Below are positions 510 to 51,203 of a DNA stretch of 64,000 nucleotides, piece after piece; the stretch's first letter is position 1; the number at the start of each line of letters is the position of its first letter. The notes below the pieces were generated by a model. The model ran no database searches. It had not been told where the DNA came from and worked only from the letters and a program-made list of their open reading frames with translations. This DNA is from Patescibacteria group bacterium (GTDB taxonomy: Bacteria; Patescibacteriota; Patescibacteriia; 2-01-FULL-39-33). Location: contig JBAZMW010000003.1 in the NCBI GenBank assembly GCA_041649575.1, forward strand, positions 122,102 through 186,101, given 5' to 3'. Position numbers and translations under genes: made by a program.

Positions 510-1604
510 CTAGCTATTAATATTCTCGGGGGTCGAAGAGGAGGTTTCGTTAGTGGTTGGTGTGGTGGCTAACGGTTTAAAACTTTTCACAATCATCTGA
601 AAAAGCGTGGGGTAGCGGAATTCGGCGTCATCAGACATAATGTATTCAAAAGAATATATTTTGGTTCTTTCATCATCGGCTAAATAAACCTTTAATTCAT
701 CGGGAGAAACTATCCCTTCCAAATCACCAACCTTGAGAAGCGACAGCTGGCTCAAATTGACCTGCGGATTTGCCTGGGCATACCAGTTAACGGCGGACAA
801 ACGATCTGGGTTTTCCCTGACTGACACCCTGATTATTTCTCCGGTTTTGGTGGTGATTAAAATTTGACGCGAGGCCTCTATAACATTACCTGACCAGTTT
901 TTGGGCGCTAAAATCTGAAAATTATCCTGGGGAAAGCTGCTAGCCACCACCTGAATGAAGCTGGCGAGTGACAATTTGGCGGCACCGCCGGACTTGAGGG
1001 GATCGTAGCCGTTAACGAGCTCCGAACCATCGAGATAGCTATCCTTATCGGTATCCGGCAGACTGGGACTAGTGCCAATGGCATTTTCTTCCAAATCAGT
1101 CAAACCATCGCGATCTGAATCGCTGCTAACGGGTGGCGGGTTAAGCGAAATAGTTTCGTTGGTATTGTTATTTTTGTTGTTGGTATTTATATTATTATCA
1201 ACATTGGCATTAATTTCACCATTAAGATTGGTTTCTATGTTTTCATTAGCTGCCTCATTAAGATTGCTAGTATTATTATTTTCATTACCATTGCCAAGGC
1301 CGGAGTTAAGGCTGTTGGTATTGATAATAATGTTGCTGTTGGTATTAGTATTAGTATTAACTACGGCCAGAGGCTTGGCTTGATTGCGCTGCCACAAATC
1401 ATAGAAAAAATAAGTGGCCGAAACAGCAACAACGATAATTAAAACAATAAAAACTATTACTAATTTTTTGCCGGACGATCTGTTTTGCAGCGGATGGAAT
1501 TTCTGCGGCATAACGTAGATATCCTGGCTGGGCGGTGTTGCTGACGGTGCTGGATTAGTATTAATTGACTGACTGACTGCTTTTTGTTTTTTAGAACCAA
1601 ACAT
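510..1604 (-). CDS. bitopic membrane protein with Asn-rich linker and thrombospondin type-3-like Ca-binding repeats (DSDRDGLTDLEE.., DTDKDS..NGYDPLK)
   Basis: N-terminal approx 45 aa, a single TM helix (LVIVFIVLIIVVAVSATYFFY), an N/S-rich low-complexity stretch, DxDxDG-type acidic repeats ending in NGYDPLKSGG, then a C-terminal approx 180 aa domain. It lies 7 nt upstream of ybeY. Confidence 0.6.
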   Translation of the reverse strand: MFGSKKQKAVSQSINTNPAPSATPPSQDIYVMPQKFHPLQNRSSGKKLVIVFIVLIIVVAVSATYFFYDLWQRNQAKPLAVVNTNTNTNSNIIINTNSLNSGLGNGNENNNTSNLNEAANENIETNLNGEINANVDNNINTNNKNNNTNETISLNPPPVSSDSDRDGLTDLEENAIGTSPSLPDTDKDSYLDGSELVNGYDPLKSGGAAKLSLASFIQVVASSFPQDNFQILAPKNWSGNVIEASRQILITTKTGEIIRVSVRENPDRLSAVNWYAQANPQVNLSQLSLLKVGDLEGIVSPDELKVYLADDERTKIYSFEYIMSDDAEFRYPTLFQMIVKSFKPLATTPTTNETSSSTPENINS

Positions 1605-11300: not shown

Positions 11301-12284
11301 CGGAGCGGCGGCATCGATTAAAGTCCCGGTGGAGAAGCTGCCGACGCATTGGCTGGGACTTAAGGAACAATCCAGGAGATAGCCACCGCAATTAATGGCT
11401 GTTCCGCTAATAGCAAGATTATAGGTGGCAGCGGCAGAAAAACATTTTAAATTGCCAAAAGGCCCGGGACAGCTGGTACTAGGGGTAAAAGCGGCCACCG
11501 ATCCAGTAACGACCAGGCTTCCGCCAACAGTATCGCCATTACAAGTATGATTGTTGGTATCACATGATTCCGAAAGACACTCATTATTATTAGTACAGGC
11601 TTGGCCATTGGTTAGGGTGGCTCCAGCCCGAGTAACCTTCAGATTCGAAATATCAATAGTGTTTTGATCCAAAGGATGATTAAAGAAAAACCTCACTACC
11701 ACATTTCTTAAAGCAATGTCATCCTTGGGTGTGATTTTGGTAGCCACACAGGCGCTGAGAAGGCCGCATTGGGGCGTAGTAGTGTCGCAGACGCTCCAAT
11801 AGCCACTCGCCTGACAGACTTTAGTACCGCAATTATTGGGTCCACAGGCAGCAGTCTCTCCGGGGGTGGTGCAAATCTCTAAATTACCCGAACCGGTGCC
11901 AGTAGCATTTTTCAAAAGATTGATGACAAAAGAGGCGATGGAGAAAGCCGAGAGAACAATAATCAATCCTATAACTGCTGAAATAATAATTTTTTTGGCC
12001 TTTTCGATTTTGCTTTCTTCACCCGAGGCCGTCATCCAGAGGAAGCCGGCATACAAAATTAAAATCAGAAGTACTATGCCAATAATGCCCAAAAAGATTC
12101 GAATAAAATTGACAATGACATCGATTAAATTGGAGTGAGCCAAGCCGCTACCACCAATAGTATCCAAACCAAAGTTGGTCTCTGCTTGGGCCAAAGCCAA
12201 ATTAACAAAAGTAAAGACACCGGCGATCACCAACAAGAGAATAATCGCTGTAAAAAATAATTTTTTTTGACTTCCAAAAGTCAT
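2391..12284 (-). CDS. giant (3297 aa) secreted/surface protein: N-terminal pilin-like two-helix hairpin, Myxococcus-type Cys-rich repeats, C-terminal LamG-like domain
   Basis: Single uninterrupted ORF. Signal-like N-terminus, then LILYAGFLWMTASGEESKIEKAKKIIISAVIGLIIVLSAF (two hydrophobic helices around a charged loop). Repeats CGDGLVKAGIEECDDGNTTGDDGCGVDC, CGNKKIETGEGCDDGNTSSGDGCDSKC and CGNGKIESGESCDDGNTTGGDGCGPTC. LamG-like segment near the C-terminus (..WVKITAAFKPGKYLKIFINGIQVAKE..). Many Cys pairs and Asn-rich beta-like segments. Confidence 0.8.
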   Translation of the reverse strand: MTFGSQKKLFFTAIILLLVIAGVFTFVNLALAQAETNFGLDTIGGSGLAHSNLIDVIVNFIRIFLGIIGIVLLILILYAGFLWMTASGEESKIEKAKKIIISAVIGLIIVLSAFSIASFVINLLKNATGTGSGNLEICTTPGETAACGPNNCGTKVCQASGYWSVCDTTTPQCGLLSACVATKITPKDDIALRNVVVRFFFNHPLDQNTIDISNLKVTRAGATLTNGQACTNNNECLSESCDTNNHTCNGDTVGGSLVVTGSVAAFTPSTSCPGPFGNLKCFSAAATYNLAISGTAINCGGYLLDCSLSPSQCVGSFSTGTLIDAAAPTVRVQPGSICKPDSYWAGTNNIRAIASDDAGVAYVDFFANSQAIGTDPVDTNSSAPIVAQVNWNASGVDVGERVQIKAKAYDHDSNSAENTKSFTVRPGHCCNGTRDAGQGEEGIDCGGDPKILGTNYCGACAGVDCDADRNLAACQPDDDICHYDCWDGSCKCVEPPIINYLSPADDPQGDSSRYDPATWSDDLPNGAPNNFISILGKNFSQIGSLLVNTLTYVDFEAGSLGGLPPDWYKLTKSRSTVGISDEEYFSGSKSVKIWRSANEPPNNWQVNQVRCSEDLCNGVGVYLSYPYKRNVIGGVNRGCEWDSVNNICDFPDQPMGCSAANHACKFNNGSLIDWPYHYTNNYVSFYYDISSLDFNLGDKYILRFKYKGILDRNASVKIAYSADDWASQSWPKAMAGVYTDNNCVLQGGVYCASNPGRCGCTESTSNCCVNSPIQTKPFNQQTLTALVAGNYTNWQEYEAIFTYTSEIDRLKDRNGNPHRLLIFNIADSQTGANGTNLYLDDFIFARMPTQGEVRFCGADTDGNGDPCDDADDKLGKFPSELNNKCESTWVDNQIIIAVPPEAVSGPIRVKNEFGYTDVTNNYLGPLINDFNVNSRVRPSICLMQPGYGANPNATGAADNTDIYGVNFPLATAVAQNLIWYLKEWNQNTNAWSFANVTTSPSGVTQPNWASLKITETVPANKIGWADVSVYNGAEFSNHYLFLLSSGAVGQPCGWVLGDTCNPNVSICRSGLTCNTTSCTCEVITACDHDGIIDSGEECDGANLNNTTCKSLGFTAGTVSCDSSCRLIKNCSRSEGWGSATQALFGWAFSTTNFVPPVENLCGNGRIDWPEECDGDLFRVNKQCNQVGCQAACSSSCKADCSACGGKWPSYSATQGIYAWSFLFGGNIIYDDLYVVEECQRGLSCSLGSRLGSPTPWSDGWTLEHPGVKNPQACLNAVISARFDVGVRVASFCGDNNFTEEAGIYTCTNPAQSRLVVLKCNNREGSSCVRVTSGALKVKTDNNDRNKDYFVFTPTTNLDPGSWYKVVLLQGISSEAGKVIKDETAASARAEDRFCKVNYGGGNTNNAAYCWNFETRADDDSDKICPEGCVECSPDPSWMYWPAAETNYSANLDSADNACLILNPNSYSWSWSTDTSNRVQLDDRVGAEEKGLALNETMHDNPKFTKVIASLNSAGKNDYCEAHIDFTNPYIVEDDNCSSGNIQSPTPWPNSRDAYINAMLGVRFSKNMFNGSLVAGSFILQKCGSETEFNVSGCDEEVNLSSIDIFSYSPEIDASGLTREEIINRLNLLNEHGLPEGVVITPSSNFDAFTWYRIIILGGENGVRGEAASGLSEGILMTDNSFNEEVRTGWDYIPSGQTAGDGQDDYYWIFKTGNQLGKINSVSVNPHLKFMPLTDDTQIYKAWPQAANCNILNPASYVWNWRSLIKLADDSQETNSTGGTGIAVAGICNKDATSCDGYADPAVNTTKVFAKTEGDTNIKARAKNTRDQDCSWNDSNCGDRWGFGQLFIGFENLRITSRYPSCDNSGVNPNYISEGICTNSVVGLDFSLDVDMNTFLANDDIILFKEGAVGGEQSLTITEPTAGSQRYTKNIRLTRSGGDLLDSTSTYRVVVKGGADGVIAWNGKQLASLNYVTGGRGEDCDKNAYPWNTVSGVCTDNCLLNPASDLCNISGGRFKQCSDTDSNNAVDYCDTTCHNLGNNNTASCGDGLVKAGIEECDDGNTTGDDGCGVDCKLEGANQKYGSLCGNKKIETGEGCDDGNTSSGDGCDSKCLPESGRPAGSRPNAPICGNGKIESGESCDDGNTTGGDGCGPTCLRTGSASGAVCGNGKVETGQPDSYSWRFKTLDKPCEVGRVQVLPQKLIINSVGVLPQAHWANPYSASSACNKEGQLLSPICYNWSWGTWNRPLGTYYSIDKYLPPDAVRNNLTCAAGGHPLAWGANYKALDSITDGLIQYITAKISGGKSCGDTGDCGELEVQCSFCNTGGERDLDNVCSDINNKGVGKDCCCHWRPIATPISPTNICPNEVIDIKFTAADGSNINMDMESLTTTTMSTLSGEWNNLNVRLYESPVPSGLNIFGLGKNNFLARFLLKAGNVLAKLFGQGLPAQANPTDLIPIKASAVNLGGATHLLITPQRLLDKNKDYVVWVNGDGDTGDGSRRGVLSQWGVSMSGDKLFTFHTLNQEYCRVEKVFVYAQPPVEFKGPVTDDTFFCKGDDCGKNTSEDLLDDDVSANWNTNYPAQYQAANLVGNQHFYWAKAADVTGNHILNANYKWEIVGPRLLAVDNSSSPQIADWNQTVEGFQSVFVTAYGNNTVNGSTAVRVTASGVVSGAGSAATSVFERVFICDNPWPQIGDFPFRDFIGSASIPAATPITNFETYYCRDRGEAALVDDLPSLNRVAISGREDIIKEFLLTNKDNPLQVKDRVGFNNLAILGSVELVTGEQGRAAKFLGRTADYLTAIDASGNPTNPFNAITGELTVSALVNLSEASLGAGRVIAGNYYWNSNPRLERGWLLGKAIGQEDSLDFIVFDASGNTSLVKYDNFFRDYGNKWVKITAAFKPGKYLKIFINGIQVAKEENNIISGVAYQAGVPFRIGHRADTADQGMWQGYIDEVKIYNKAEPQTDDDGLISYYSFEDASDAIGLRVIKNPNHYSPLVWYQQTFDPKKQGQPKSLTVDGYQAVSEGRTTYVAGADLDNNANNIYTSIYLVSYSQDASGDTKEIYKQLVNNFQLNAGVTADINGGLQDRFGSCSKDNSKKCLVDNQCSKGGFGYCSSDKAKLTRDAKRISDIQEFNLLLDNYYNQKRCANDHQKLCYNSFSCYGGASCGNYYPPLLSGTYVVNRTYSVWPSWQATLANALGKALPADPLNKLEGCAGDYDPATCWDKINKKMQCPTDAYVYSYYVLKDPIDGLIGKKKNIFANGEYNKDGTKWLPAWSSVELINKNTDNANIFGGLNTADFCH

Positions 12285-23886: not shown

Positions 23887-23962
23887 TGGTGGACGCCGAC
23901 GGGATCGAACCGCCATCTCTCCTGGTGCTAGCAGGCCGCTCTACCAATTAAGCTACACGTCC
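23887..23962 (-). tRNA. tRNA-like gene, possibly degenerate; anticodon loop CUAGCAC gives apparent anticodon AGC
   Basis: A 76-nt cloverleaf can be folded by hand: T-loop GGTTCGATCC, D-arm GCTT/GAGC, CCA encoded. There is a G.G mismatch at 7:66 and a G.A at 27:43. A34 and A3:U70 are both unusual for a bacterial tRNA-Ala, so the identity is uncertain and it may be a pseudogene. Confidence 0.5.
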
Positions 23963-23973
23963 ACCAAATAGCT

Positions 23974-24051
23974 TGGCTCCCCGGGGAAGGATTTGAACCT
24001 CCGACCTAGTAGTTAACAGCTACCCGCTCTACCGGGCTGAGCTACCGGGGA
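23974..24051 (-). tRNA. tRNA-Asn (GUU), copy 1 (one extra nucleotide at T-stem/acceptor junction)
   Basis: Anticodon arm GGTAG-CTGTTAA-CTACT; T-loop TTCAAAT; CCA encoded. A hand fold leaves one extra C between the T-stem and the acceptor 3' strand. This may be real or a folding ambiguity. Confidence 0.65.
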
Positions 24052-24098
24052 ACATGAGAACACGAGTACTAATTCAACTAGCTACCTAGAGAATAGTT

Positions 24099-24173
24099 TG
24101 GTTTCCCGGGGAGGGTTCGAACCTCCGACCTGGTGGTTAACAGCCACCCGCTCTACCACTGAGCTACCAGGAA
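24099..24173 (-). tRNA. tRNA-Asn (GUU), copy 2
   Basis: Clean 75-nt cloverleaf: acceptor TTCCTGG/CCGGGAA, D-arm GCTC-AGTGGTA-GAGC, anticodon loop CTGTTAA, T-arm GGAGG-TTCGAAC-CCTCC, discriminator A, CCA encoded. Confidence 0.8.
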
Positions 24174-31606: not shown

Positions 31607-31680
31607 CGCGGGGTAGAGCAGTCTGGCAGCTCGTCGGGCCCATAACCCGAAGGTCGCTGGTTCAAATCCAGCCCCCGCAA
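31607..31680 (+). tRNA. initiator tRNA-fMet (CAU)
   Basis: Nearly identical to the E. coli tRNA-fMet core. C1xA72 is unpaired; three G-C pairs close the anticodon stem (TCGGG/CCCGA); anticodon loop CCCAUAA, with C at position 33; T-loop TTCAAAT. The 3' CCA is not encoded. Confidence 0.85.
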
Positions 31681-31774
31681 CAAGAAATAGCATATAGCTT
31701 ATAATTTATAGCATATAACTTACGGCGCTCCTGATTTAATATATGCCTTAAGTTAAAAAGCTATATGCCATCTT

Positions 31775-31846
<72 letters not shown>

Positions 31847-31859
31847 CTACTTGCTACCT

Positions 31860-31943
31860 GCCGAAGTGGCGGAATTGGTAGACGCGCACGACTCAAAATC
31901 GTGTGGTCGTAAGACCATGAGGGTTCGATTCCCTCCTTCGGCA
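31860..31943 (+). tRNA. tRNA-Leu (CAA), type II long variable arm
   Basis: Acceptor GCCGAAG/CTTCGGC, anticodon loop CTCAAAA, long variable arm GGTCGTAAGACC, T-loop TTCGATT, discriminator A; CCA not encoded. Confidence 0.85.
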
Positions 31944-31981
31944 AAATCGGTTAAACTTTTCATCTTAAATTATTTTTACAC

Positions 31982-39085: not shown

Positions 39086-39535
39086 ATGAAAATAATCAAT
39101 AAAAACAAAGAGGGTCTGTTCAATTACCAGGTACTGGAAAACTTCGAGGCCGGCGTTGTTCTGACCGGCCCGGAAGTCAAATCGGTCAAGAGCGGACAGG
39201 TCAGTCTCAAGGGCAGTTATATTCGACTGGACAAAAATAATGAAGCCTGGCTGATAAATTGCCATATTTCTCCCTACCAACCGGCGGCCGGCAGTGTCAA
39301 AAATTATGAGCCAACCCAGCCGAGAAAACTGCTACTAAAAAAGAGGGAGCTGCTTTCGCTGGTGGGCAAAAGCAAGCAAAGCGGCTTGACAATTATACCA
39401 ACCAGTGTATATACTAGAAAAAGATTAATTAAGGTGGGTCTGGCTCTGGCCAAAGGCAAACGAGAAATCGACAAACGCGAAACCATCAGAAAACGAGAAG
39501 CCGAGCGCCAGATCCAAAGAACCTTAAAAAGATAA
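39086..39535 (+). CDS. smpB: SsrA-binding protein SmpB
   Basis: ..GVVLTGPEVKSVK.., ..WLINCHISPYQ.., and a basic C-terminal tail; 149 aa. Confidence 0.9.
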   Translation: MKIINKNKEGLFNYQVLENFEAGVVLTGPEVKSVKSGQVSLKGSYIRLDKNNEAWLINCHISPYQPAAGSVKNYEPTQPRKLLLKKRELLSLVGKSKQSGLTIIPTSVYTRKRLIKVGLALAKGKREIDKRETIRKREAERQIQRTLKR

Positions 39536-39566
39536 AAGTGCTTAACGGTTATTTGATAATAATTCT

Positions 39567-39958
39567 GGGGATGTTTTGATTCGATAGCTTGAAATAGCCA
39601 AGAGGCAGGCCGAGATTGGCAATTGCTCGTTAACTAACAGCCAAACATATAAGTGCCAAAAACTTATTAGCTAAAGTCAAAACTGCTTTTAGCGGTTTAG
39701 CTTTGGCGCCAGCTGTTGCCTAAACAGGCTTAACAGCCATCGCCTTGCCGACGCCTAATAGGCAAATAAGCGGTGTTATATTTTTAGGCTCGACCGGAAC
39801 CATAGTCTGGAGTTCTGGTTAAAATTTTGACCAGACCGTAGGCCGCCAGTGTTTTGCTTCTTTCCAATTGGCGGCTGAAACCCAAAGAAGCAAAAGCCTG
39901 TAAACCGCTGGGCCAATTTTACAGCTAGACAGGAGCTCATTACTCCTCATCTCCACCA
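39567..39958 (+). ncRNA. ssrA: tmRNA (ssrA)
   Basis: The 5' GGGGAUGUUUUGAUUCGAUAGC pairs with the 3' ..CAUCUCC-A-CCA acceptor, including the G3:U70 Ala identity pair, and CCA is encoded. An internal tag-like frame ends ..GLALAPAVA* before TAA (about 39660-39745). The T-arm is AGGAG-CUCAUUA-CUCCU, which is an atypical T-loop. It lies immediately downstream of smpB. Confidence 0.8.
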
Positions 39959-41195: not shown

Positions 41196-44100
41196 TTAAG
41201 CTGTCACTACCTTATCTTGTAAAGGCCGAACCGCCTCTATTACTTTTTTCAAGACAGCGGCGGGATTTTTACCGGCATAAGGAGCCGAGCGGCTGACCGC
41301 CTCGCCAGTGCCCCCCTGATGGCTGGCTTCCATCACCAGTTCGGCGGGGTTGATTCGGACATCGATATTACTCTCTGCCAAAGTAAACTGCAGGACACCT
41401 TTGGTCACCTTGGCCGCCGAGGCCTGGCCAGTTATACCGGCCTCAGAAAGAATCTTGGCAACTTCTTTGCTGGGAGCGGTGCCGGCTTCAACCAGTCTAG
41501 TTAACTTAACCCAGCTTTCAAGGTTTGGAGAGTTTAAGACTTCAGTACCGCTAATTAGCTTGCCAACCGCCGAGTCGGGAGCGACTTCTCCGCCAGCAAA
41601 AGTCAGAACCTTTTTGGCCAAATCGGCGCCATGACTTTCTACCAAACCGTTAAGCGTCTCGCCAGGAACAACTTTGGGGTTCCCGCTATAGAAACTAACC
41701 ACTTCTTTGGCCACACCCTTGACTCCCGATGATAAAATTTCGGCCGCTCGGCCTGGTTCAAGTCCGGCCTCATGCGCCTGACCCATCAGGTCGTAGGCGG
41801 ACTGATCTAAACTGACACCAGAACCTTTGACCAAGCCGACTACCTGACGCAAATAAGCATTATTAGACTCTATTTGCGATAGAGTTTTCTCGCTTAGCTT
41901 GCCGGCGGCCTGTAAAACCTTTCCTGTATCACCGGTTTTCGGATCAAAAAAGGTGCTGGCCACTAATTCATTAAACTTATCATTACCGGCTAGTTTGGCC
42001 AGATCTTCAGGAGTGACATGATCGATATTAGCCGGTAAACCAAACTCGGTTGGACTTTTGGCAACCGCGTCTTTGATGGAATCAACCAAATAGGTAATCT
42101 TGCCTTCACGAAAGACAGGTAGCTTTTTGAGAGCTTCCGAAGTCATTTTACTAATATCTACATCCTTCGGCAGTCCAAGTTCGGCGGGATAGGTCTGGCC
42201 GCTTTCTATGGCCTTTTTGACTGTTGATCCGAGCGCTGCTTCGCATTTCTTTTCGATAACTCCCCAGACAGTATGCGAACCTTTAGCCTCAACTCCTTCG
42301 ACGACTTCCAGCGCTTGCTCAAATTCAGTCAATTTTTCCGGCGCTTCCGGCCCAGGCGCGGTTTCCGTCGTGGCAGATTCTGCTGGCGCGGCACCTGGGG
42401 TATGTTCTGTTGGCGCACCGCCCGAAGCGGCTTCTGGCGCACCGGCGTCCGGCACTCGCGGAGCTCCTTCTGCTGGTGGGTTGCTCCCTTCAACTGTTGG
42501 TTGCTCTGCCGGCGCGGCGCCAGGAGTATGTTCTGCTGACGCTCCACCAGGAGCGGCTTCTGGCGCACCGGCGTCTAGAACTCGCTGAGCTCCTTCTGCT
42601 GGTGGCTGGCCTTCCGGCGAAACGCCGGCATGAGGGGCTTCCGCACCGCTTCCGCCGCTTCCGGCTTCAGCGGCGCCAGTGGCCGCGCCATGACCACGGA
42701 GCCATTGCCAAGGCTGAATACCGACAACCAGGCCAGCGGCGGCGGCTATCACGCCGCGTTGTATTTCTTTTCTTCTTTCAGCTCGGCCGGTTTGCTCTTC
42801 AGCTTGATGGGAAGTGCTAATATAAAAATCCAATTGATTAGACAAGGCATCGGCCAAAGAATAGCCGCTGGTATCAATGGCAGTCAATCTCTCCTCCATT
42901 CTAGCCAAACTGGCTTGATACATTTGATCAATAACCGGCTTCATTCTATCGCCAAAAACATCTACTTGACGCTTGCCTTTTCTTTCGGCCAAGGCCGTTA
43001 TTCTGGCCAACTCTTCCTTTAAATCCTTATCGCTTAAACTTCCAAACTTTTTTTCTAACCAAGCTTTGGCAGCTTTAGGATCTTTCCTTTTCTCTTTAGC
43101 GTATTCTTTATAAATCTTCTGGGCTAATCCTTTATCTCCAAAACGTTTAGTAAATCTTTCCAGAGCGGCGTCAACACCCATGGCGGTACCGGTACCGCCA
43201 AGTATTCTTCTGGCAAAAAAGACAGCGGTCAGCAACGGCGCCGAAGCGGCGAAAGAAGTGGCAACGGCCGGAGTGGCCAAAGCCACAGCGGCTCCCAACA
43301 AAGCGCCGGAAACAATCAGTCTGCCAGTGGCATGACGTTGCCACCATCCTTTAAGTCTTTCTCCTCTGCTTTTTTCCTTACCTTCAAACTCGGCCCAGAC
43401 TAGTTGGTTTTCCTTATCATACAAATCAACCAGTCCCTGAGCTAGACGATCTGGAAACATGGCCAGAGGACTAAGTTCACCGGTCTGTACTTTGGATCGG
43501 ATCGACTCTTGCAAAGTCGCTTCATAAGAACGCCTTAACTGCTCTAACTTCTGCTCGCCCTTCTTGCCGCGGAATTCGGATTTGCCAATAAGTTTCATCC
43601 TCTCTCGCCTGGCTTGATAATAGGCCTTGCGGGCTTGATCTAGGGTTGGTTTGTCTTCTTCAGTCTCAATTATTATAGGTCCTTCACCAGTTTTATCTGA
43701 TGGAGGAAAAGGAGCGGCATCATCTTCCTCTTCATGAGACTTTAGTGTCGATTCTTCCGATTCATCTTCTAATTCATCTTCCGGCTTCTTTCCTGATTCC
43801 TCAAGCTCACGCACAAGACGTTCAGCCTCAGCTAGATCAAGAGGTGCTGACTCTGACTCTAATGGAGGCGCTATTAATTCCACATCAAGAACCGACTCAA
43901 TCCAAGTCGCGTATGCCTTATTATCGACAAAATTAAAGGTACGTATATAGGGTTTTTCTCCCTCTTCCACTAAACCAAGAAATTTTTCTTCATAGGTCGC
44001 TGATAAATAAGTGACTCTTATCATGCTCCCTGGCTTAATACCCCTAAATTTTTCCAAAAGTCTTTCTGTTCTTTCGGCCGGACTTTCCTCTGGCAACGGT

Positions 44101-47042
44101 GAAGGTCTTTCTGCTTCTTCGTCTGGATTTTCACCCGACTCCGGAGCTGGCGGCGGTGGAGGAGGGAGAACTTCCCCAGATAAATCCCCAAGCGGTGCTT
44201 CTGAATCATCTGGCCGCATCACTTCAACGCTCTCTATTCTATTGGTATTTTCTTGCCTGCCATCTTCAAAAAGCAACAGCATCCCGGCTGTGGTATCCAC
44301 CAATCCCCTGAAGTCTCCGATAAAACTCGATCCGTCCGTACAGACCCCTGCTAGTTTATCGCCAGGCTTACAACCGCGAAGTACTGCAAGTACTCTTTCT
44401 ATTCTTTCTTTATCTTTTTTATCTTTATCTTCGGCGTCAGACTCTACCGGCGCAGGCCTAGGCGTTTCAACCGCCTCACTGGTCGCCGTCACCCTAGCTC
44501 TAACAATCTCGCCACCCGGCTTAGTAAAACCCATAGTAACAACCGCAGCAACTTTTAGATTACGGCCCTTGGGACCTTCAGTAAATGTAACCTCATGATA
44601 CTTCTCATTAATATTATCGCCCAGCTGAACTAGCCAAAGTCTAAAACCAAAACTTTGCATTAACCCTGATAAATATCCGACTTTTGCGGTTTCAAAAACG
44701 GGACCATTAACCGCATCACAATATTCTCTGCCAATTTCATCTACCAAAACTTGCACCGCGTGCTCTCTGCTTTCTGTTTCTATTTTGTCTTGTAATCCTC
44801 TAGCGCCAGCAGCTAGCTGTCTCATCCCCAAGGCTTCTGCTCTGCTAAGAATTGCTGAGAGCATGGCTTGCAGCTCTTGCTGTTCCGCGCTAAGCTCTGC
44901 TTCTGCTTTTTCGTCTCCTTTTGGTGTTTCTGGCGCCGGCTGTTCGATGGCCGGTGCTAACACCTCAATCTTTGTTATTAAAGAAAGAAGGATCTTTTTT
45001 GGCTTTAAGTCACTTGGTTTGCCTTTGATCTTTACGCGGTCACCTTCCACTCCATCAAAAAAGCCCTCTTCTTTCATTCCGCCCAAATCTACCAAAATCC
45101 TAGTGCCAAGCGGCAAATCTTTTAATTGATCGGCTGTTACTTCCCGTCCTGACTGCTTAGCGCCTAACCGCTCGGCTACCTCATTCATTATTTGCAAAGC
45201 ACATTCCCGAACCAAACCTCTGGCGGTTTCTTCTTCGGCGCTTTCTTTTTTGGGCCGATAACGAGCCTCTTGGCCGGCTGCGTTTGCAGCTGTTCTAAAA
45301 AGAGTATTTTCTAAAGCAACCAAATCTTTAGGAAGAACTTTTTCTTCCTGCTCTGTCATGTTCTGGATGATTCTTTGTTTTGTTTCCTCTAAAGCCTTTT
45401 TGAAAGCAGGCAAAAATTTAGTCTCAGATTCACCACTTCCTTCTCCTTTTAATTCTTGATCTTTCGAGCCATTCACTTCGGCCATAATTTGCTCCGCGCA
45501 CGCGCTAACCAGATTTAGAACAGCCGGCTCCTCGGCATGCTTCCAGCCTTTTGTCGCCCTGATAGTTTTGTCGAGAATCGACTTTTCTAATTTATCTTTT
45601 TCTTCCGGCTTAATCCTTCTTCTCTCACTCTTCATTCTTTTGACTATCTCCTCTCGCGTCTGGTCTAATGCCTCTTTAAAAGCTTCCAAGAATGCCTCAA
45701 ACTCATTTTTTTCCTCCCCCTTTCTGATAATTTCAGTGTCAATGCTTTCGCCAACCTCGCACTGGGCATTACCCTGTAATAGAATACGACAATTTTTGGC
45801 TTTTCTAATAGCCAGCTTAGCGCCATCCTCAACGACAAATCTGCTATCTGTCGCACTCTCGACTTCCATGGATATCCCGGCTCCGATCTTTTCTCTGCGC
45901 CTGTCGTTCATCTCTCTTCTTCTTACTGTTTTGAGCCCCGATCCTGGCTTTTCTTCTATAGATCCGCCATTCTTCCCGGTGGTATCAAGCTCGGCTTCAA
46001 TTTGTTCAGCGAAATTTTGGGATGCTTGGCGCACCAGGTCTTTTTCGGCTGCCGACTGCGCCTCCAAGCCGGTTTCTTTTTGGACGTCACGCTCAACTGT
46101 CCCAAAAAATATAGTTTTTTGCATATCATTGGCTTCTTGCGCATCATCAGCGCCAGCTCTAATTATGGTTATAAATTCTTGCCTTCTTCCATTTAAAACC
46201 CTCTCAAAAACAGGCAAAAACCTGTCTCTAAATTCCGGTCTGATTTCTGGCGACTCGGCCGCTGGAGCCCCTCCTTTTATTTCTCCTTTAAACGCGGCAT
46301 GGGTTTCACGCAGCCCCTCTAATTCAGCTACAACTGCTTCTAACTCTTTATATAAAGGATTAAATTCATCTCTTAAAGCTTCTATATCTTCACCTATACT
46401 CTCTAAAGCCTGCACACTAAAAACCTTATTTATTAAAAAACCCAAAAAACGTTCAATTATTTCAATCTCCTGATTAATGATTTTTTGAGCCCACTCCGGC
46501 TTGGCCTCTACCTTGGCCCTGACACTCGATAAAATAGTTTTGCCTTCAACTATGCCTGATCTCTCTTTGGCCGCGTTAACTTCTGCTCTAATTTGATCAA
46601 GAGCAATTTCGGCTTCTGCCGTCTCGGCCGGTGGCGGCGGGATTTCAACGCCAACTACGGGGAGATGTAATCCTAAAACTGATCTGGCATTATCAATAAC
46701 CCACCGAGCATTTGCCTTGTTGATTACTCCACCACGCCCTTCTTTCTTGAAAGTGTCAGACATATCCAAAATGTGCTCCAGTCCGGCTAAGAGCTCATCT
46801 AATTCCGGCGCCTGCAGGTCGGACAAATCGGACAAAGCATTAAAAGAATCTACAGCAGCCCTGAATTCTTCTACTTCTGGTTCCTTTCTTCCTGAAAGAT
46901 TAGTCTTTATTCTCAAAAGAGCCCTATTTATTCTTTTTCTTTTTTCCTTGTTCTCTTTTCTCTCGGCCTCTGTTGCCTCTCCTTCGGCTCCGGGCTCAAG
47001 CTCGTCTTCTTTGTCTGGAGTTTTTGGTTTATAATCTCCCAT
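41196..47042 (-). CDS. giant (1948 aa) acidic, coiled-coil/low-complexity protein with central TM segment, tandem Pro/Ala-rich repeats and repeated small beta-domains
   Basis: Single ORF; E/K-rich, predicted coiled-coil N-terminal half; three copies of a small module (..LRGCKPGDKLAGVCTDGSSFIGDFRGLVD.. / ..FRGIKPGSMIRVTYLSATYEEKFLGLVEEG.. / ..LPLGTRILVDLGGMKEEGFFDGVEGDRVKIKG..); a hydrophobic stretch LIVSGALLGAAVALATPAVATSFAASAPLLTAVFFA; a tandem approx 36-aa repeat (GAQRVLDAGAPEAAPGGASAEHTPGAAPAE x2), which is a 108-bp DNA repeat at about 42366-42590; and a C-terminal approx 400-aa globular region. Confidence 0.75.
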   Translation of the reverse strand: MGDYKPKTPDKEDELEPGAEGEATEAERKENKEKRKRINRALLRIKTNLSGRKEPEVEEFRAAVDSFNALSDLSDLQAPELDELLAGLEHILDMSDTFKKEGRGGVINKANARWVIDNARSVLGLHLPVVGVEIPPPPAETAEAEIALDQIRAEVNAAKERSGIVEGKTILSSVRAKVEAKPEWAQKIINQEIEIIERFLGFLINKVFSVQALESIGEDIEALRDEFNPLYKELEAVVAELEGLRETHAAFKGEIKGGAPAAESPEIRPEFRDRFLPVFERVLNGRRQEFITIIRAGADDAQEANDMQKTIFFGTVERDVQKETGLEAQSAAEKDLVRQASQNFAEQIEAELDTTGKNGGSIEEKPGSGLKTVRRREMNDRRREKIGAGISMEVESATDSRFVVEDGAKLAIRKAKNCRILLQGNAQCEVGESIDTEIIRKGEEKNEFEAFLEAFKEALDQTREEIVKRMKSERRRIKPEEKDKLEKSILDKTIRATKGWKHAEEPAVLNLVSACAEQIMAEVNGSKDQELKGEGSGESETKFLPAFKKALEETKQRIIQNMTEQEEKVLPKDLVALENTLFRTAANAAGQEARYRPKKESAEEETARGLVRECALQIMNEVAERLGAKQSGREVTADQLKDLPLGTRILVDLGGMKEEGFFDGVEGDRVKIKGKPSDLKPKKILLSLITKIEVLAPAIEQPAPETPKGDEKAEAELSAEQQELQAMLSAILSRAEALGMRQLAAGARGLQDKIETESREHAVQVLVDEIGREYCDAVNGPVFETAKVGYLSGLMQSFGFRLWLVQLGDNINEKYHEVTFTEGPKGRNLKVAAVVTMGFTKPGGEIVRARVTATSEAVETPRPAPVESDAEDKDKKDKERIERVLAVLRGCKPGDKLAGVCTDGSSFIGDFRGLVDTTAGMLLLFEDGRQENTNRIESVEVMRPDDSEAPLGDLSGEVLPPPPPPAPESGENPDEEAERPSPLPEESPAERTERLLEKFRGIKPGSMIRVTYLSATYEEKFLGLVEEGEKPYIRTFNFVDNKAYATWIESVLDVELIAPPLESESAPLDLAEAERLVRELEESGKKPEDELEDESEESTLKSHEEEDDAAPFPPSDKTGEGPIIIETEEDKPTLDQARKAYYQARRERMKLIGKSEFRGKKGEQKLEQLRRSYEATLQESIRSKVQTGELSPLAMFPDRLAQGLVDLYDKENQLVWAEFEGKEKSRGERLKGWWQRHATGRLIVSGALLGAAVALATPAVATSFAASAPLLTAVFFARRILGGTGTAMGVDAALERFTKRFGDKGLAQKIYKEYAKEKRKDPKAAKAWLEKKFGSLSDKDLKEELARITALAERKGKRQVDVFGDRMKPVIDQMYQASLARMEERLTAIDTSGYSLADALSNQLDFYISTSHQAEEQTGRAERRKEIQRGVIAAAAGLVVGIQPWQWLRGHGAATGAAEAGSGGSGAEAPHAGVSPEGQPPAEGAQRVLDAGAPEAAPGGASAEHTPGAAPAEQPTVEGSNPPAEGAPRVPDAGAPEAASGGAPTEHTPGAAPAESATTETAPGPEAPEKLTEFEQALEVVEGVEAKGSHTVWGVIEKKCEAALGSTVKKAIESGQTYPAELGLPKDVDISKMTSEALKKLPVFREGKITYLVDSIKDAVAKSPTEFGLPANIDHVTPEDLAKLAGNDKFNELVASTFFDPKTGDTGKVLQAAGKLSEKTLSQIESNNAYLRQVVGLVKGSGVSLDQSAYDLMGQAHEAGLEPGRAAEILSSGVKGVAKEVVSFYSGNPKVVPGETLNGLVESHGADLAKKVLTFAGGEVAPDSAVGKLISGTEVLNSPNLESWVKLTRLVEAGTAPSKEVAKILSEAGITGQASAAKVTKGVLQFTLAESNIDVRINPAELVMEASHQGGTGEAVSRSAPYAGKNPAAVLKKVIEAVRPLQDKVVTA

Positions 47043-47385: not shown

Positions 47386-47602
47386 AAATTTTATTTATTT
47401 TTTATTGTTAATTATTGAATTTTGTTTAAAATAACAGTATTCCAGCTAGAGCTTAATCTGGCTGTCTGAATATATTATACCAAACAAAGAGAATTGGTGA
47501 AAGGGTGGCAAAATAAATAATTATTAACTAATTTTATTTATACTTTTTGGCTAAAATTAGATAATATTCTTGATAAAAAAGAAGCTTTTTTCTCAACTAC
47601 TA

Positions 47603-47631
47603 TTGACAAATTATTTATGGTATGCTATAAT
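47603..47631 (+). promoter_or_regulatory. perfect sigma70-type promoter TTGACA-17-TATAAT (cassette copy 1)
   Basis: TTGACA at 47603-47608, a 17-nt spacer, TATAAT at 47626-47631; embedded in the conserved context TACTATTGACAAA...GTATGCTATAAT. Confidence 0.75.
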
Positions 47632-47716
47632 GAGTAGTTCGGTAAGTAACCGAAAGCACATCACAAAGGCAGCCCTGGTAATGACACCGGGGTTCGCAAG
47701 AGAAAAGGAGAAGACG

Positions 47717-48697
47717 ATGGGTACGGACACAGGAATAGAGGACGATGTGGTGATTATTGGTGAGGACACCGGCATCGCTGACACCGGCATCGCTGACACA
47801 AAGACGAGTCGGCCGAAGCGTAAAGTCGGAATCTGGCGGATCGTGCTGGGCCTGATCGGCCTGGCGCTCATCGCCTTCGCGGCATTGACCGCGTACGGCC
47901 TGATCGTCAAGACCGACGCGATTGACCGGCGTGTCGTCGTGCTGGAAAATCGCGTCGACGGTTTCGACGAACGCATCAAGGCCGGTGACGAGGCGGTCGA
48001 GGACATCTCCAAAGCCACCGACGATCTGTGGAGGCGAATGGCGAATGTCGAGAAACGCTTCGACAAGGATGGAGAATTCGCGAAGACCGTGGCCGCGGTT
48101 GCCAAGACCGCCGAAGACGTGACGGCGCTGCAAGCCGCGGTCGATGAAATCCCCGATGCCATGGCCGAGGCCACAGCTGGAATCGAAGGCCGGGTCAAAG
48201 CCCTCGAAGACGGCGCCGCGCAGGCACAGGAGAGGGCCAGCCGCGAGCTCCTGATGCTCAAGGTTGCCGAGATCCGCCGCGCGAATCCGGCGAGCGATGT
48301 CAGCGCCATGAGCGACGCGGACATTGGCAAGACGCTGGCTGGCAAGGGCGGCAACGATTTTCGCAAGAAGATTGAGGCCGCATACGTCAGCCTCGGAGCC
48401 AAGCCTGTCGTCACGGCACCAGCTCCGGCTCCAGCACCGGCACCAGCGCCAGCGGTAAATCTGGCTGAGGTAGAACGCCGGCTGGACGCGGCCGAGAAAG
48501 AAGTAAAACTTGTCGGGCAAGCCGCCAAAACCTTGGCGACGAATCCTGACAAGCCGAAGCACCTGGTGCGTGGCGCCAAGGCGAGGGCGCTCAAGCTGTT
48601 GGTGGATGTCCCCGACGACTTGCCACCCGCCTCCGCAAGACCGGCATCCCCGAAGAAGGACAACGTCATCCGGCCGGAGTTCGGGGACCGGCCGTAA
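47717..48697 (+). CDS. GC-rich island gene: coiled-coil protein with N-terminal TM helix and (PA)n repeat
   Basis: Start chosen at the ATG with strong RBS (AAAAGGAGAAGACG-ATG) downstream of the promoter; the track ORF starts upstream of the promoter at 47570. TM WRIVLGLIGLALIAFAALTAYGLIV; long Ala/Glu-rich helical region; PAPAPAPAPAPA run. Confidence 0.6.
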   Translation: MGTDTGIEDDVVIIGEDTGIADTGIADTKTSRPKRKVGIWRIVLGLIGLALIAFAALTAYGLIVKTDAIDRRVVVLENRVDGFDERIKAGDEAVEDISKATDDLWRRMANVEKRFDKDGEFAKTVAAVAKTAEDVTALQAAVDEIPDAMAEATAGIEGRVKALEDGAAQAQERASRELLMLKVAEIRRANPASDVSAMSDADIGKTLAGKGGNDFRKKIEAAYVSLGAKPVVTAPAPAPAPAPAPAVNLAEVERRLDAAEKEVKLVGQAAKTLATNPDKPKHLVRGAKARALKLLVDVPDDLPPASARPASPKKDNVIRPEFGDRP

Positions 48698-48730
48698 CAC
48701 GTACCTTTGATCGCGCACCTCGTGCGTTAG

Positions 48731-48780
48731 CCCCCCCAGACTCTGGCAGTTTCATAGAGTCTGGGGGGTGAATTATTTTA
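48731..48780 (+). terminator. stem-loop terminator after island coiled-coil gene
   Basis: CCCCCCAGACTCT-(loop)-AGAGTCTGGGGGG, an 11-13 bp stem, followed by a U-poor tail TGAATTATTTT. Confidence 0.55.
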
Positions 48781-49160
48781 GAGAGATTTTGCTTTTATAT
48801 ATTGACTAAACAAGACAAAACTGATAAAATTATTTTTGATATTTATGGATTACTGCCCCCGCCAGAATGACTCTGTCGGGCTGGCGCCCGACTGAACGGC
48901 GTTCAGCCGTTCGGGCGGGGCTCAGTCTTGCCCCGTAGAATACTGCTAAAGCAGTAGCGCCAGAGGCGCTATTCTACGGGGTGAAGTTAGAGCGCTCCCC
49001 CTGTCACGGAAGAGGGTCGCCGTAGGCGACGGGCAGAAGCGAGCCATGAGCAAAGCGAATGAAACGAGCGTAGATGAATGCGACCATGGGAGCATTCGGC
49101 TCTGCCAGGAAACATCGGGTGCAACCCGCGACCGTCAAACTTTTTACAAGTTAATATTTA

Positions 49161-49234
49161 TGGATTGGTAGCTCAGTTGGTTAGAGCGCTCCCCTGTCAC
49201 GGGAGAGGTCGCGGGTTCGAGTCCCGTCCAGTCC
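49161..49234 (+). tRNA. tRNA-Asp (GUC)
   Basis: Acceptor GGATTGG/CCAGTCC, D-arm GCTC-AGTTGGTTA-GAGC, anticodon arm CTCCC-CTGTCAC-GGGAG, T-arm GCGGG-TTCGAGT-CCCGT, discriminator G; CCA not encoded. It is followed by the hairpin ATCACCC-TTGC-GGTGATTTTTGTTTT. Confidence 0.85.
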
Positions 49235-49413
49235 GCTGGATAAAACAAAAATCACCCTTGCGGTGATTTTTGTTTTACTACACGAAGTGGAGAGGGGCTC
49301 GAACGGGTTGGCAGCGAGGCAAATCCGAAGGATGCAGCCGAGCGTCAAAAATTGCGAGCTGGCGCAGCAATTTTTGCCAACCCAGGACAGAGTGAGCAAA
49401 GCGAACGCCGAGA

Positions 49414-49430
49414 AGTCCCGTCCAGTCCGC
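49414..49430 (+). repeat. 17-nt direct repeat of the tRNA-Asp 3' end (AGTCCCGTCCAGTCCGC), att-like scar
   Basis: Exact copy of tRNA positions 49219-49235, about 180 bp downstream. Confidence 0.7.
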
Positions 49431-49539
49431 ATTTTTCTAGTCAGCCCCAAGTGGGCTGATTTTTGAGAATAAAAAAGAGCGGCGATCCACACGACGGTGA
49501 ATCTCCCGCTCTACAATGTCCTGATAGCCTTTCAGCGGT

Positions 49540-50268
49540 TTATCCTCTGCCACCGCCGACCAGTGCGCGTAACGCGTTGAACATGCCATCAGCCACTTGT
49601 GTCCTTCGCGTATCCATGGACTCAAGCATGGCATCGATCCTGTCGAAGCCGTCTCGACCGTACTCAAGAAGTGTTGGGCCATAGAATAGCCGCGTGAACA
49701 GTTCATTACCGACAAAACTCCATTCGGTGTAAGGCGTCTCTGAGTAACCGTCAGAGTTGTCGTGGATGTCGAAAACCCTGTTGGTGTGCGTACCGGCGAT
49801 GAGAATATCGCCACCCTCGACTTGTCCGGTTACAGTCACCAACGCCTGTTGAAGCCTCTCCATAAAATACTCCTGGTACCACTCCCTGACTTTCGTCAGG
49901 ACAATGTTTCTCGATTCCTCCGGAAGATTGGTGACAATGTGCCCGGTCTGCCTCGGACTGAGCCTGACCATCGAGTTGCTGCTCAACTTGTCCAAGAACA
50001 CGCCCAGACCGATGTTCAACCAGAGGCCATCCGTGAGGTTGAGAATGGGAGAGTTGATGATAAAGATGTGTGTCCTAGCTTGATCTGGGTCCTGGGCAAT
50101 TCGACGAATGACCTCCAGTCCGTCTTGTTGGTTGAGACAAAGGTGGGGACGAAAACAGCTTTCTTTCGCTTGCACTAGGGCAGCAATTCCCCTGTTAAGA
50201 TCCTGGTGCAACTGTGACCGGTCGTCAAAGTCAACCAGTAGGGTGTGGCTTTTCTTCTGATCCGACAT
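49540..50268 (-). CDS. GC-rich island gene: hypothetical alpha/beta protein (242 aa from ATG with GAGGAG RBS)
   Basis: Alternating beta-alpha pattern (HTLLVDFDD.., THIFIINSP.., DILIAGTHTNRVFDIHDNSDGY); no motif recognised. The track ORF uses an upstream TTG (to 50292). Confidence 0.55.
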   Translation of the reverse strand: MSDQKKSHTLLVDFDDRSQLHQDLNRGIAALVQAKESCFRPHLCLNQQDGLEVIRRIAQDPDQARTHIFIINSPILNLTDGLWLNIGLGVFLDKLSSNSMVRLSPRQTGHIVTNLPEESRNIVLTKVREWYQEYFMERLQQALVTVTGQVEGGDILIAGTHTNRVFDIHDNSDGYSETPYTEWSFVGNELFTRLFYGPTLLEYGRDGFDRIDAMLESMDTRRTQVADGMFNALRALVGGGRG

Positions 50269-50478
50269 ATTCTTCTCCTCGATGTTGACCAAAGAATGTA
50301 CGATTGTTAAAAAGGTATACTAAATTAAGTATTTTGTCAAATACTAAAACATAATAACTCATTATTACTATTGACAAGCCTAATATCTTGTGCTAAACTT
50401 ACCAGTTATCGATTTTGAGTCAGTACTTTGTGTAGAGCACGACAAACCGGTTCCGTGACATGAACAGGAGGACGACCA

Positions 50479-50856
50479 GTGAAAAACCACAATAGTTATG
50501 CCACTTACCAACCGAGCGACCAGCGGCTTCGCGAAGCCGACCACTGGGAGGTCTGGGATAAGCTACCGCCCGAGCTCAAGTTTGAGGCAGTGGCGGCTCG
50601 CGACCCCTCTCTGACCGCTCTGTGTGCCCGAGACAAGGGCGTGTACGTCTGGGTATTCCCGCACGCTGTACCTTCGGTCCAAAGTGGCATTGGACCATTC
50701 ATGGCTCTAGGGTCGCGACGCGGCAAGGATCGCATGGACTTCATCGTGACAACTCCTTCGGCGGATGACCCCATCGCGTTCGCCAAAGCCGAGAATGCGA
50801 GAAAGCTGAGGGAGCTGTCAAAGGGCGCCAAGGGTCCGAAGAACCATCAGAAATGA
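50479..50856 (+). CDS. GC-rich island gene: hypothetical 125-aa protein, GTG start with AGGAGG RBS
   Basis: Divergent from 49540..50268; preceded by TTGACA-17-TAAACT (50373-50401) in the ACTATTGACAA context. Confidence 0.5.
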   Translation: MKNHNSYATYQPSDQRLREADHWEVWDKLPPELKFEAVAARDPSLTALCARDKGVYVWVFPHAVPSVQSGIGPFMALGSRRGKDRMDFIVTTPSADDPIAFAKAENARKLRELSKGAKGPKNHQK

Positions 50857-51203
50857 GATGGGCGGTCGTCAAAGCCGCTACCGTCTCAACAACGCCGCAT
50901 CAGCTACCTGGTGCGGCCGTTTTAAATAATAATTTTGTTATACAGATACCAAAAGAGTTAATTTCCATCCACTCCAGAGTCCTCCGCCTAAGCTAAAGTT
51001 TTGGCGGACAAGTAAAACCTGCCTTGACTCGCGTCAGGCCTGGCGTCGCCGAAGGCTATGCCAAAGGCGCGTGAGGCAGGTCGTCCCGCAAGTCTCGGCA
51101 AAATAAACTCAGGACTCAATCACTTCCAAATCAATAAAATTTGCAAAAAGCGCTTTATATTTGATATAATAAAAACACGACTTAAAAAATAATTTATCTA
51201 ACT

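Follow-up and report, generated by a model that had tools for sequence, protein, structure and literature searches.

The tRNA-Asp(GTC) gene of a Patescibacteria group bacterium (GCA_041649575.1, contig JBAZMW010000003.1, positions 122,102–186,101 of the forward strand; this stretch of 64,000 nt is referred to as the window, and coordinates count from its first letter) is one functional gene with small non-coding inserts nested around it. Two of these inserts, one upstream (~49016–49161) and one downstream (49237–49413) of the tRNA, belong to a family with a conserved three-way junction (3WJ), whereas a third insert (X1) is unrelated. We assign a probability of roughly 0.5 to the reading that the 3WJ inserts represent an undescribed family of small, non-autonomous, structure-dependent elements, which insert at tRNA genes, duplicate a tRNA end and keep the tRNA expressed. 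tRNA genes are classical landing pads of mobile DNA, and the elements known to land there are kilobase-sized and carry their own integrase. The inserts described here measure ~180 nt, code for nothing and share a conserved fold; they can flank the tRNA on either side, and they accompany more than one tRNA species. Their host belongs to the candidate phyla radiation (CPR), a lineage in which mobile elements and small RNAs have hardly been studied.

Displaced tRNA ends and the three-way-junction family

The window is part of one 189-kb metagenome contig (ENA ERZ27247363), assembled with MEGAHIT (final k-mer 141). It is cellular genome sequence, as it carries smpB, a transfer-messenger RNA (tmRNA) gene, infC, groEL and a pyruvate kinase gene, and it contains the CPR hallmarks type IV secretion system pilin and DUF5663. 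tRNA genes were called by ARAGORN and Rfam. Parts of the intact tRNA-Asp gene recur on both of its sides (Table 1). Downstream, the 17-nt copy of the tRNA 3′ end that a first-pass annotation of the window had reported was recovered as an exact repeat, which extends from A58 in the T-loop to one base past the discriminator. The degenerate tRNA copy that the annotation had placed upstream of the gene was confirmed as well and comprises the 3′ part of the D-loop, the 3′ strand of the D-stem, the anticodon arm and the variable loop. A further upstream repeat had been missed: TTGATATTTATGGATT is identical at 15 of 16 positions to TTAATATTTATGGATT, which covers the tRNA leader and tRNA nt 1–5 at 49151–49166. 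The blocks said to recur near 49050 and 49393 correspond to the 13-nt sequence TGAGCAAAGCGAA at 49047–49059 and 49393–49405.

The repeats are longer than expected by chance. The longest exact matches between the tRNA and its flanks were 15 nt on the left and 17 nt on the right, compared with maxima of 11 and 12 nt in 1000 dinucleotide shuffles of the flanks, and the 13-nt repeat between left and right flank compares with a maximum of 12 nt in 300 shuffles. BLAST E-values of the tRNA fragments within ±1.5 kb were 9e-8 and 2e-5. No such flanking fragments were detected at the other six tRNA genes of the window, located in clusters at 23887–24173 (Ala, Asn, Asn) and 31607–31944 (Met, Met, Leu), or at the tmRNA gene (Rfam 111.6 bits), which directly follows smpB at 39086–39958. 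A 194-nt tandem triplication of the tRNA was also considered, with three repeat pairs spaced 193–194 nt apart, but the remainder of the putative units fails to align and this candidate was rejected.

For comparison, we used 13 further tRNA-Asp loci from Candidatus Buchananbacteria and relatives (assemblies from NCBI, JGI and Logan), designated by L numbers below. Copies of the 3WJ element were searched for with covariance models in 124 kb, on both strands. Model R1, built from the copy at L003, the copy upstream of tRNA-Asp at L006 and the downstream copy of the window, recovered three further copies: the upstream copy of the window (E = 0.0045), one upstream of a tRNA-Ala gene at L006 (E = 5e-5) and one at L011 (E = 2e-7). 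Model R2, built from all six copies, found nothing beyond these. The six copies thus stem from four genomes and two tRNA species, and every one of them lies less than 200 nt from a tRNA gene.

The element is 86–96 nt long and is embedded in a non-coding insert of 175–199 nt, which is bounded by a displaced tRNA end (nt 1–19, or the 3′ end from the T-loop) on one side and by the intact tRNA on the other. In five copies the DNA between the repeats measures 176, 182, 175, 177 and 199 nt. The core consists of a stem P1 of ~7 bp, a stem P2 that opens with a GC/GC step beside tandem GA...GA, and a hairpin P3, with the conserved single-stranded motifs AGCGA, GAGCG and AGGA. Pairwise identity among the six copies is only 43–68%. 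It amounts to just 50% between the two copies of the window, and the best match of the downstream copy is the upstream-type copy at L003 (68%). The fold is nevertheless maintained. In the six-sequence alignment, 95.5% of the cells in 19 modeled pairs form standard base pairs, compared with 33–37% when the partners are slid, and 15 of the 19 pairs show double compensatory changes; none of 500 shuffles reached the observed values. On the tRNA-sense strand, G-U pairs outnumber A-C pairs 5 to 1. Rfam, at gathering and at permissive thresholds, matched only tRNA and tmRNA and no tRNA-like, ribozyme, OMEGA/HEARO, ROOL/GOLLD or group I/II intron family, with nothing over the junction even at E ≤ 5–10 (window, L006 and L011). 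Terminal inverted repeats were not found in the inserts, the best inverted match between the two ends scoring 4–7 over 40 nt.

The inserts occur in two arrangements. In the upstream type, a promoter is followed by tRNA nt 1–19, a hairpin (H0), the 3WJ, the motif (A/T)GGAyAGAGCG.TCC, which resembles tRNA nt 18–31, a second hairpin (H4), an AT-rich spacer of ~45 nt and the intact tRNA. In the downstream type, the order is intact tRNA, terminator, GGGRCTCGAAC, 3WJ, CAGGACAgAG plus tail, displaced tRNA 3′ end and second terminator. H0 has counterparts, hairpins of the form GTCG/GACG...CGAC/CGTC, at the equivalent place in L003 and both L006 copies, and H4 differs among copies in a compensatory manner (CCGACC/GGTCGG versus CCGCCC/GGGCGG). 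In both arrangements, the identity block starts in a loop of the tRNA that is flanked by dyad symmetry and reaches the end of the gene, from A58 to +1 downstream and from nt 1 to G19 in the D-loop upstream.

Filled and empty tRNA sites in related genomes

L003 and L006 have an exact copy of tRNA-Asp nt 1–19 behind a promoter or an upstream terminator, followed by 176–182 nt of structured non-coding DNA and the intact tRNA. The same architecture precedes the tRNA-Ala(GGC) gene at L006, where the displaced piece is the exact 19-nt 5′ end of tRNA-Ala. The tRNA-end repeats are identical at 17 of 17 positions in the window (downstream repeat) and at 19 of 19 positions in L003 and in both inserts of L006. 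At L011, found as the one new 3WJ copy among 10 further tRNA-Asp-linked loci retrieved with rpsP homologues as bait, the order is that of the right side of the window, with the structured DNA downstream of the tRNA and enclosed by a terminator and a partial 3′ end, CAGTCCGC. A neighboring protein of L003, used as bait for more copies, returned only itself. The 75-mer of the window tRNA-Asp is identical in L003 and L004, both from metagenome-assembled genomes of Candidatus Buchananbacteria, and L004 carries a decayed 18-nt 5′ fragment.

Plain tRNA-Asp sites were found at L005, L007, L010, L012, L014/L015, L016 and L019. Among loci with tRNA-Asp next to rpsP, L006 is filled upstream and L011 downstream, whereas L012, L014/L015, L016 and L019 are empty. 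Likewise, the site next to the gene p105 is filled in the window and empty in L005, where a plain tRNA-Asp immediately adjoins homologues of p1948 and p105, the two genes left of the window locus. The comparison implies that p375, a GC-rich gene, and the structured leader were gained in the window.

Some sites hold other DNA. L008, which is syntenic with L003 and has the same promoter, contains two tandem 5′ fragments in place of the 3WJ, each with a 33-nt hairpin insert in the D-arm. These tandem units (~1150–1290, minus strand) consist of tRNA nt 1–13, the hairpin, nt 14–21 and an AT-rich spacer of ~45–50 nt with GTTAAT repeats. A large serine recombinase is encoded ~650 nt downstream of tRNA-Asp in L012 (1952–3201, minus strand), a PrimPol-helicase gene lies downstream of it in L005 (30–2225), and in L010 a free-standing LAGLIDADG endonuclease open reading frame (ORF; 2520–3188), flanked by AAAATAAGTTAG and AAAGTAAGTTAG, separates rpsP from tRNA-Asp. 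Also downstream of tRNA-Asp in L005 (~2365–2390), a 3′ fragment of a different tRNA, GTTCGAGTCCCGTGCGGGTCGTC, stands in inverted orientation, and the post-tRNA sequence GAAATAGTATCGRATGACCCGAAG is common to L005 and L012. The Logan contigs L018, L020 and L021 end inside tRNA-Asp just after rpsP, which hints at frequent assembly breaks at this variable or repeated locus.

Origin of the inserts

If the 3WJ inserts are mobile, insertion into the tRNA gene would take place at the D-loop side or at the T-loop side, and each event would duplicate the corresponding tRNA end, i.e., nt 1–19 upstream or the stretch from the T-loop to the 3′ end downstream. Because an end is duplicated each time, one intact tRNA would always remain. 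The upstream inserts contain no predicted terminator and no promoter of their own, so the tRNA would still be read from its original promoter, and the downstream inserts would bring their own terminator directly after the tRNA. No ORF was found in the inserts (175–199 nt), which are too short for a recombinase gene. As they encode nothing, any movement must rely either on a recombinase provided in trans or on a mechanism at the nucleic acid level; the former might act on the att-like (attachment site-like) repeats, the latter might involve a folded strand or an RNA-level step. Later events in the window may have included the arrival of X1 in the displaced 5′ fragment and the onset of decay in the displaced pieces. 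A family of elements fits the maintenance of the fold by compensatory changes, the diverged spacers, the perfect repeats, the filled and empty sites and the presence of repeats cognate to two different tRNAs. Moreover, insertions that differ in age should leave perfect repeats at some loci and decayed ones at others, and both were found, the decayed ones in the degenerate copy of the window and at L004 and L011. That tRNA fragments can act as attR sites is well documented (PMC9897764), so the general theme is familiar; novel are the uniformly small size, the junction with its conserved fold, the occurrence on both sides of the tRNA and the CPR host.

Several points count against this interpretation. 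Neither an excised form nor an empty allele of the same strain nor a circular junction was seen, and no recombinase, transposase or reverse transcriptase was detected beside any 3WJ copy. A double-stranded circle of ~200 bp would be an awkward recombination substrate, and the family has only six copies in four genomes. The base-pair counts rest on six sequences in an alignment that was fitted to the model, and selection on the fold would be expected for a host RNA too. In the window itself, the upstream repeat includes 11 nt of the leader and looks more like a local duplication than like an element-borne att site. Furthermore, the upstream 3WJ follows tRNA nt 50–53 instead of nt 19, so that its junction differs from the clean upstream type; this copy was possibly rearranged through the sequence GGTCG, which H0 shares with the tRNA variable loop.

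It is doubtful that the 3WJ inserts amount to a new class of non-coding mobile element specialized on tRNA genes. A tRNA-derived, structure-dependent module would in that case enter at the elbow loops (D-loop or T-loop) and duplicate exactly the stretch from loop to gene end, by way of a folded single strand or an RNA-mediated step, perhaps via tRNA-processing or tRNA-shape-recognizing enzymes and with no element-encoded integrase. It would survive as its essential target is never inactivated and as it is expressed from the tRNA promoter.

The first-pass annotation had interpreted the locus as attL/attR scars of serial site-specific integration and excision. Its view of the tRNA gene as a hotspot of recombination and insertion is borne out, but several observations do not fit plain att scars. 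A classical origin of this kind, in which large integrative elements (plasmids, viruses or islands with tyrosine integrases) integrated in the 5′ or 3′ portion of the tRNA and were subsequently lost or removed by deletion, is unlikely. The 3WJ would then be the att-proximal non-coding part left behind, comparable to a cis-mobilizable element (CIME). The 17-nt repeat has the textbook extent of an att identity block, and mobile genes adjoin tRNA-Asp in L005, L010 and L012. tRNA fragments are common as attR sites (PMC9897764), and remnants that keep attL and attR, as well as accretion at tRNA genes, have been described (PMC5704250). pTN3-like integrases are documented to integrate into the 5′ half and restore the tRNA, which is rare in bacteria (PMC8371274). 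On the other hand, the DNA between the repeats is a discrete insert with a conserved, covarying junction in four genomes and at two tRNA species; its constant size in five sequence-diverged copies argues against independent deletions, and dead remnants would not retain compensatory base-pair changes. The piece duplicated upstream of the tRNA is the 5′ end of the gene, a polarity seldom met in bacteria. No full-length junction-bearing element was found in the 124 kb of related loci, and searches of IMG/VR gave no true match. The annotation had also proposed to look for an integrase elsewhere in the genome. A Pfam scan of 20 window ORFs at 39–64 kb revealed no recombinase, and no integrase was found at 41–64 kb of the window.

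Sublocation classes of att sites of tyrosine integrases within tRNA genes were reportedly described by Williams in 2002 (cited via PMC8371274). As with tRNA-targeting integrative elements, the intact tRNA is regenerated, the displaced fragment repeats the gene end, and the downstream repeat runs from the T-loop to past the 3′ end; unlike them, the inserts are ~180 nt long and non-coding, lack an integrase, have a covarying 3WJ core and, in the upstream copies, duplicate the 5′ end. The pTN3-like integrases of Thermococcales use the 5′ half of a tRNA gene as attB (PMC8371274). They share with our inserts the displaced 5′ fragment and a restored tRNA expressed through or from the inserted DNA, but they are archaeal, belong to kilobase-sized plasmids and viruses, and drive the tRNA from the integrase promoter, whereas the 3WJ inserts have a CPR host, carry no gene and apparently leave the tRNA to be read through from its original promoter. 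CIMEs are att-flanked remnants without integration genes (PMC5704250) and resemble the inserts in their att-like flanking repeats, in the lack of integration and transfer genes and possibly in mobilization in trans or accretion at a tRNA gene. They are decay products of identifiable integrative and conjugative or integrative and mobilizable elements and vary in size, whereas the 3WJ inserts are uniformly small and share a conserved fold, and no parent element was found for them in the related loci or in IMG/VR.

Two further systems are of interest with respect to structure. Integron cassettes carry attC sites, which are recognized by recombination as a folded strand, and short non-coding units are possible. 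By analogy, folded-strand recognition would explain selection on the structure of the inserts; unlike in integrons, no integron integrase was found, no R″/R′ core sites were recognized, the target is a tRNA gene and the duplication spans 17–19 nt. MITEs (miniature inverted-repeat transposable elements) and palindrome-associated elements derived from IS200/IS605 are likewise small, non-autonomous, structured and GC-rich within AT-rich intergenic DNA. An assignment to MITEs or IS200/IS605 was nevertheless rejected: the inserts have no terminal inverted repeats, and their repeats are 17–19 nt of the cognate tRNA as opposed to 2–10-bp duplications. IS200/IS605 elements are not known to make any duplication.

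Alternatively, the 3WJ unit could be a functional, non-mobile host RNA that arose from partial tandem duplication of tRNA genes, which we consider improbable. As a leader or trailer derived from a tRNA, it would share the transcript of the tRNA and be cut free by RNase P, and the tRNA-end copies would be kept identical by selection or gene conversion. The covariation demonstrates selection on the fold, a promoter lies upstream of the unit, no internal terminator is present, and the structured strand is the tRNA-sense strand. Judging from the sequences, P1 (GGGTTGG/CCAACCC) resembles the tRNA-Asp acceptor stem (GGATTGG/CCAGTCC), GC..GAGCG resembles the D-stem (GCTC..GAGCG) and GTC the variable loop. 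Behind the junction, GGAYAGAGCG.TCC is a copy of tRNA nt 18–31, and the 5′ fragments remain identical at 19 of 19 positions despite diverged spacers. Such an RNA would not be expected, however, to be as patchy as observed among orthologous sites, where most rpsP-linked tRNA-Asp loci are empty, or to occur either upstream or downstream of the tRNA. The downstream copies stand behind a strong terminator and have no promoter, the displaced fragments are decayed in the window, L004 and L011, and purely local duplication fails to explain why the family also occurs at tRNA-Ala with the cognate fragment.

Chance similarity or an assembly artifact is effectively refuted, even though the locus comes from one MEGAHIT contig and a second assembly of the strain was not found. 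The repeats surpass every shuffle, and as the final k-mer is much longer than any of them, they cannot cause a mis-join. The same architecture also appears in independent assemblies (NCBI, JGI and Logan), and the L006 unit is 100% identical in three samples (3300013123, 3300013125 and 3300013138).

Other candidate identities of the 3WJ unit were discarded. The tandem GA beside P2 recalls a hammerhead core, but CUGANGA and GAAA are absent. A Shine-Dalgarno sequence with a small peptide was rejected, as AGGA is conserved but no start codon or ORF is conserved behind it. A tRNA intron (group I or bulge-helix-bulge) does not apply, since the interrupted copies in L003 and L006 have no proper anticodon loop, T-arm or 3′ acceptor strand and an intact tRNA lies beside them. 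Against a guide RNA or omega RNA of the IscB/TnpB type, neither a nuclease ORF nor a HEARO match was found, and the 19-nt tRNA piece would target the neighboring intact gene. Pairing of the displaced 5′ fragment with the 3′ strand of P1 works in L003 only and is not conserved.

Mobile 3WJ inserts would provide a minimal model of a parasite that uses an essential gene as a safe site and would suggest a new recombinase acting in trans or a mechanism based on RNA. As host RNAs, they would form a new family of RNAs derived from tRNA. In practice, the tRNA fragments and assembly breaks that they create can confuse tRNA annotation in metagenome-assembled genomes.

Further features of the locus and its surroundings

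Table 1 Features of the tRNA-Asp locus in the window.
Feature	Position	Strand	Remarks
Sigma-70-like promoter, TTGACT-17-TAAAAT, extended −10 TG	48802–48830	+	Only predicted promoter of the locus
Displaced tRNA leader (11 nt) and tRNA nt 1–5, TTGATATTTATGGATT	48836–48851	+	Direct repeat of 49151–49166
X1, two-domain structured insert	48852–48985	+	Replaces tRNA nt 6–18 of the displaced copy
Degenerate tRNA-Asp copy, nt 19–50/53	48986–49015/49020	+	Two single-base insertions, one substitution; 93% over 30 nt
H0, hairpin GTCGCC-GTA-GGCGAC	49016–49030	+	Directly 5′ of upstream 3WJ; by inspection
3WJ-up, upstream three-way-junction copy	49029–49114	+	R1 (built without 3WJ-up) 19.7 bits, E = 0.0045; R2 48.2 bits
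H4, hairpin CGGGT-GCA-ACCCG	49116–49128; part with antisense run to 49133	+	Equivalents (GCA or GATA loop) in L003 and L006
AT-rich spacer ending in duplicated leader	49134–49161	+	No promoter, no terminator predicted
Intact tRNA-Asp(GTC)	49162–49236	+	ARAGORN; Rfam 69.6 bits
T1, terminator-like hairpin (16-bp perfect stem and T run)	49241–49277	+	Immediately after tRNA; first part of downstream insert
GGGGCTCGAAC, antisense of T-loop and T-stem 3′ strand	49294–49304	+	Abuts downstream 3WJ
3WJ-dn, downstream three-way-junction copy	49303–49391	+	81–82 bits
Tail of downstream insert	49392–49413	+	Holds second TGAGCAAAGCGAA; GAACGC..GA..AG common with L011 tail
Displaced tRNA-Asp 3′ end, 17-mer AGTCCCGTCCAGTCCGC	49414–49430	+	Exact repeat of 49220–49236
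T2, second terminator-like hairpin TCAGCCC-CAAGT-GGGCTGA and TTTTT	49441–49465	+	Similar to T1

The promoter is located upstream of the displaced 5′ fragment and 330 nt before the intact tRNA, and its layout is analogous in L005, a plain site, and in L003 (TTGCCA-17-TAAAAT). T2 probably represents the terminator that the tRNA gene had originally. Together with the outer promoter and the outer fragments, it looks like the original gene, with the intact tRNA now positioned between two inserts.

X1 comprises a four-way junction of cloverleaf-like shape (~48852–48926) and a three-way junction (48928–48984), which is closed by an inverted repeat of 12–14 bp. The predicted fold of 48847–48985 has a free energy of −80.5 kcal/mol (z = −8.0). 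Both the 12-bp inverted repeat (48931–48942 and 48970–48981) and the second palindrome (48887–48919) noticed in the first-pass annotation are present. This palindromic block is a separate structured insert within the displaced 5′ fragment and no att site. It is unrelated to the 3WJ family, and no second copy of its 134 nt was found in the 124 kb searched. Homology with the 33-nt hairpin insert of the 5′ fragments in L008 was rejected, as the likeness is limited to a faint similarity of the ends.

Two short antisense pieces of the tRNA were found. In the tRNA leader, AACCCGCGACC (49123–49133) is perfectly antisense over 11 nt to tRNA nt 46–56 (variable loop and T-stem); by chance, ~0.08 repeats of this kind would arise in 800 nt. 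It may be a tRNA fragment in inverted orientation, or it may base-pair with the tRNA of the precursor. GGGGCTCGAAC had been described as a T-arm-like element near 49293; the sequence is indeed there, but in antisense orientation, and does not form a T-arm. In L011, GGGACTCGAAC holds the equivalent position.

The locus lies in a GC-rich block (~47900–50900; 0.50–0.60 versus ~0.43 elsewhere), which contains p375 (47570–48697; coiled-coil, AP repeat), the tRNA-Asp locus, p250 (49540–50292) and p125 (50479–50856). That p105 stands directly beside tRNA-Asp without p375 in L005 suggests that the DNA on both sides of the tRNA was acquired. The flanking ORFs p375, p250 and p125 had no family match; searches against Pfam, PHROGs and NCBIfam revealed no recombinase among them, nor did searches of p250 and p125 against PDB sequences. 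The window also contains two giant ORFs of 3297 aa and 1948 aa (within 2391–12284 and 41196–47042, respectively); the latter, p1948, had no Pfam match and is partly conserved in L005.

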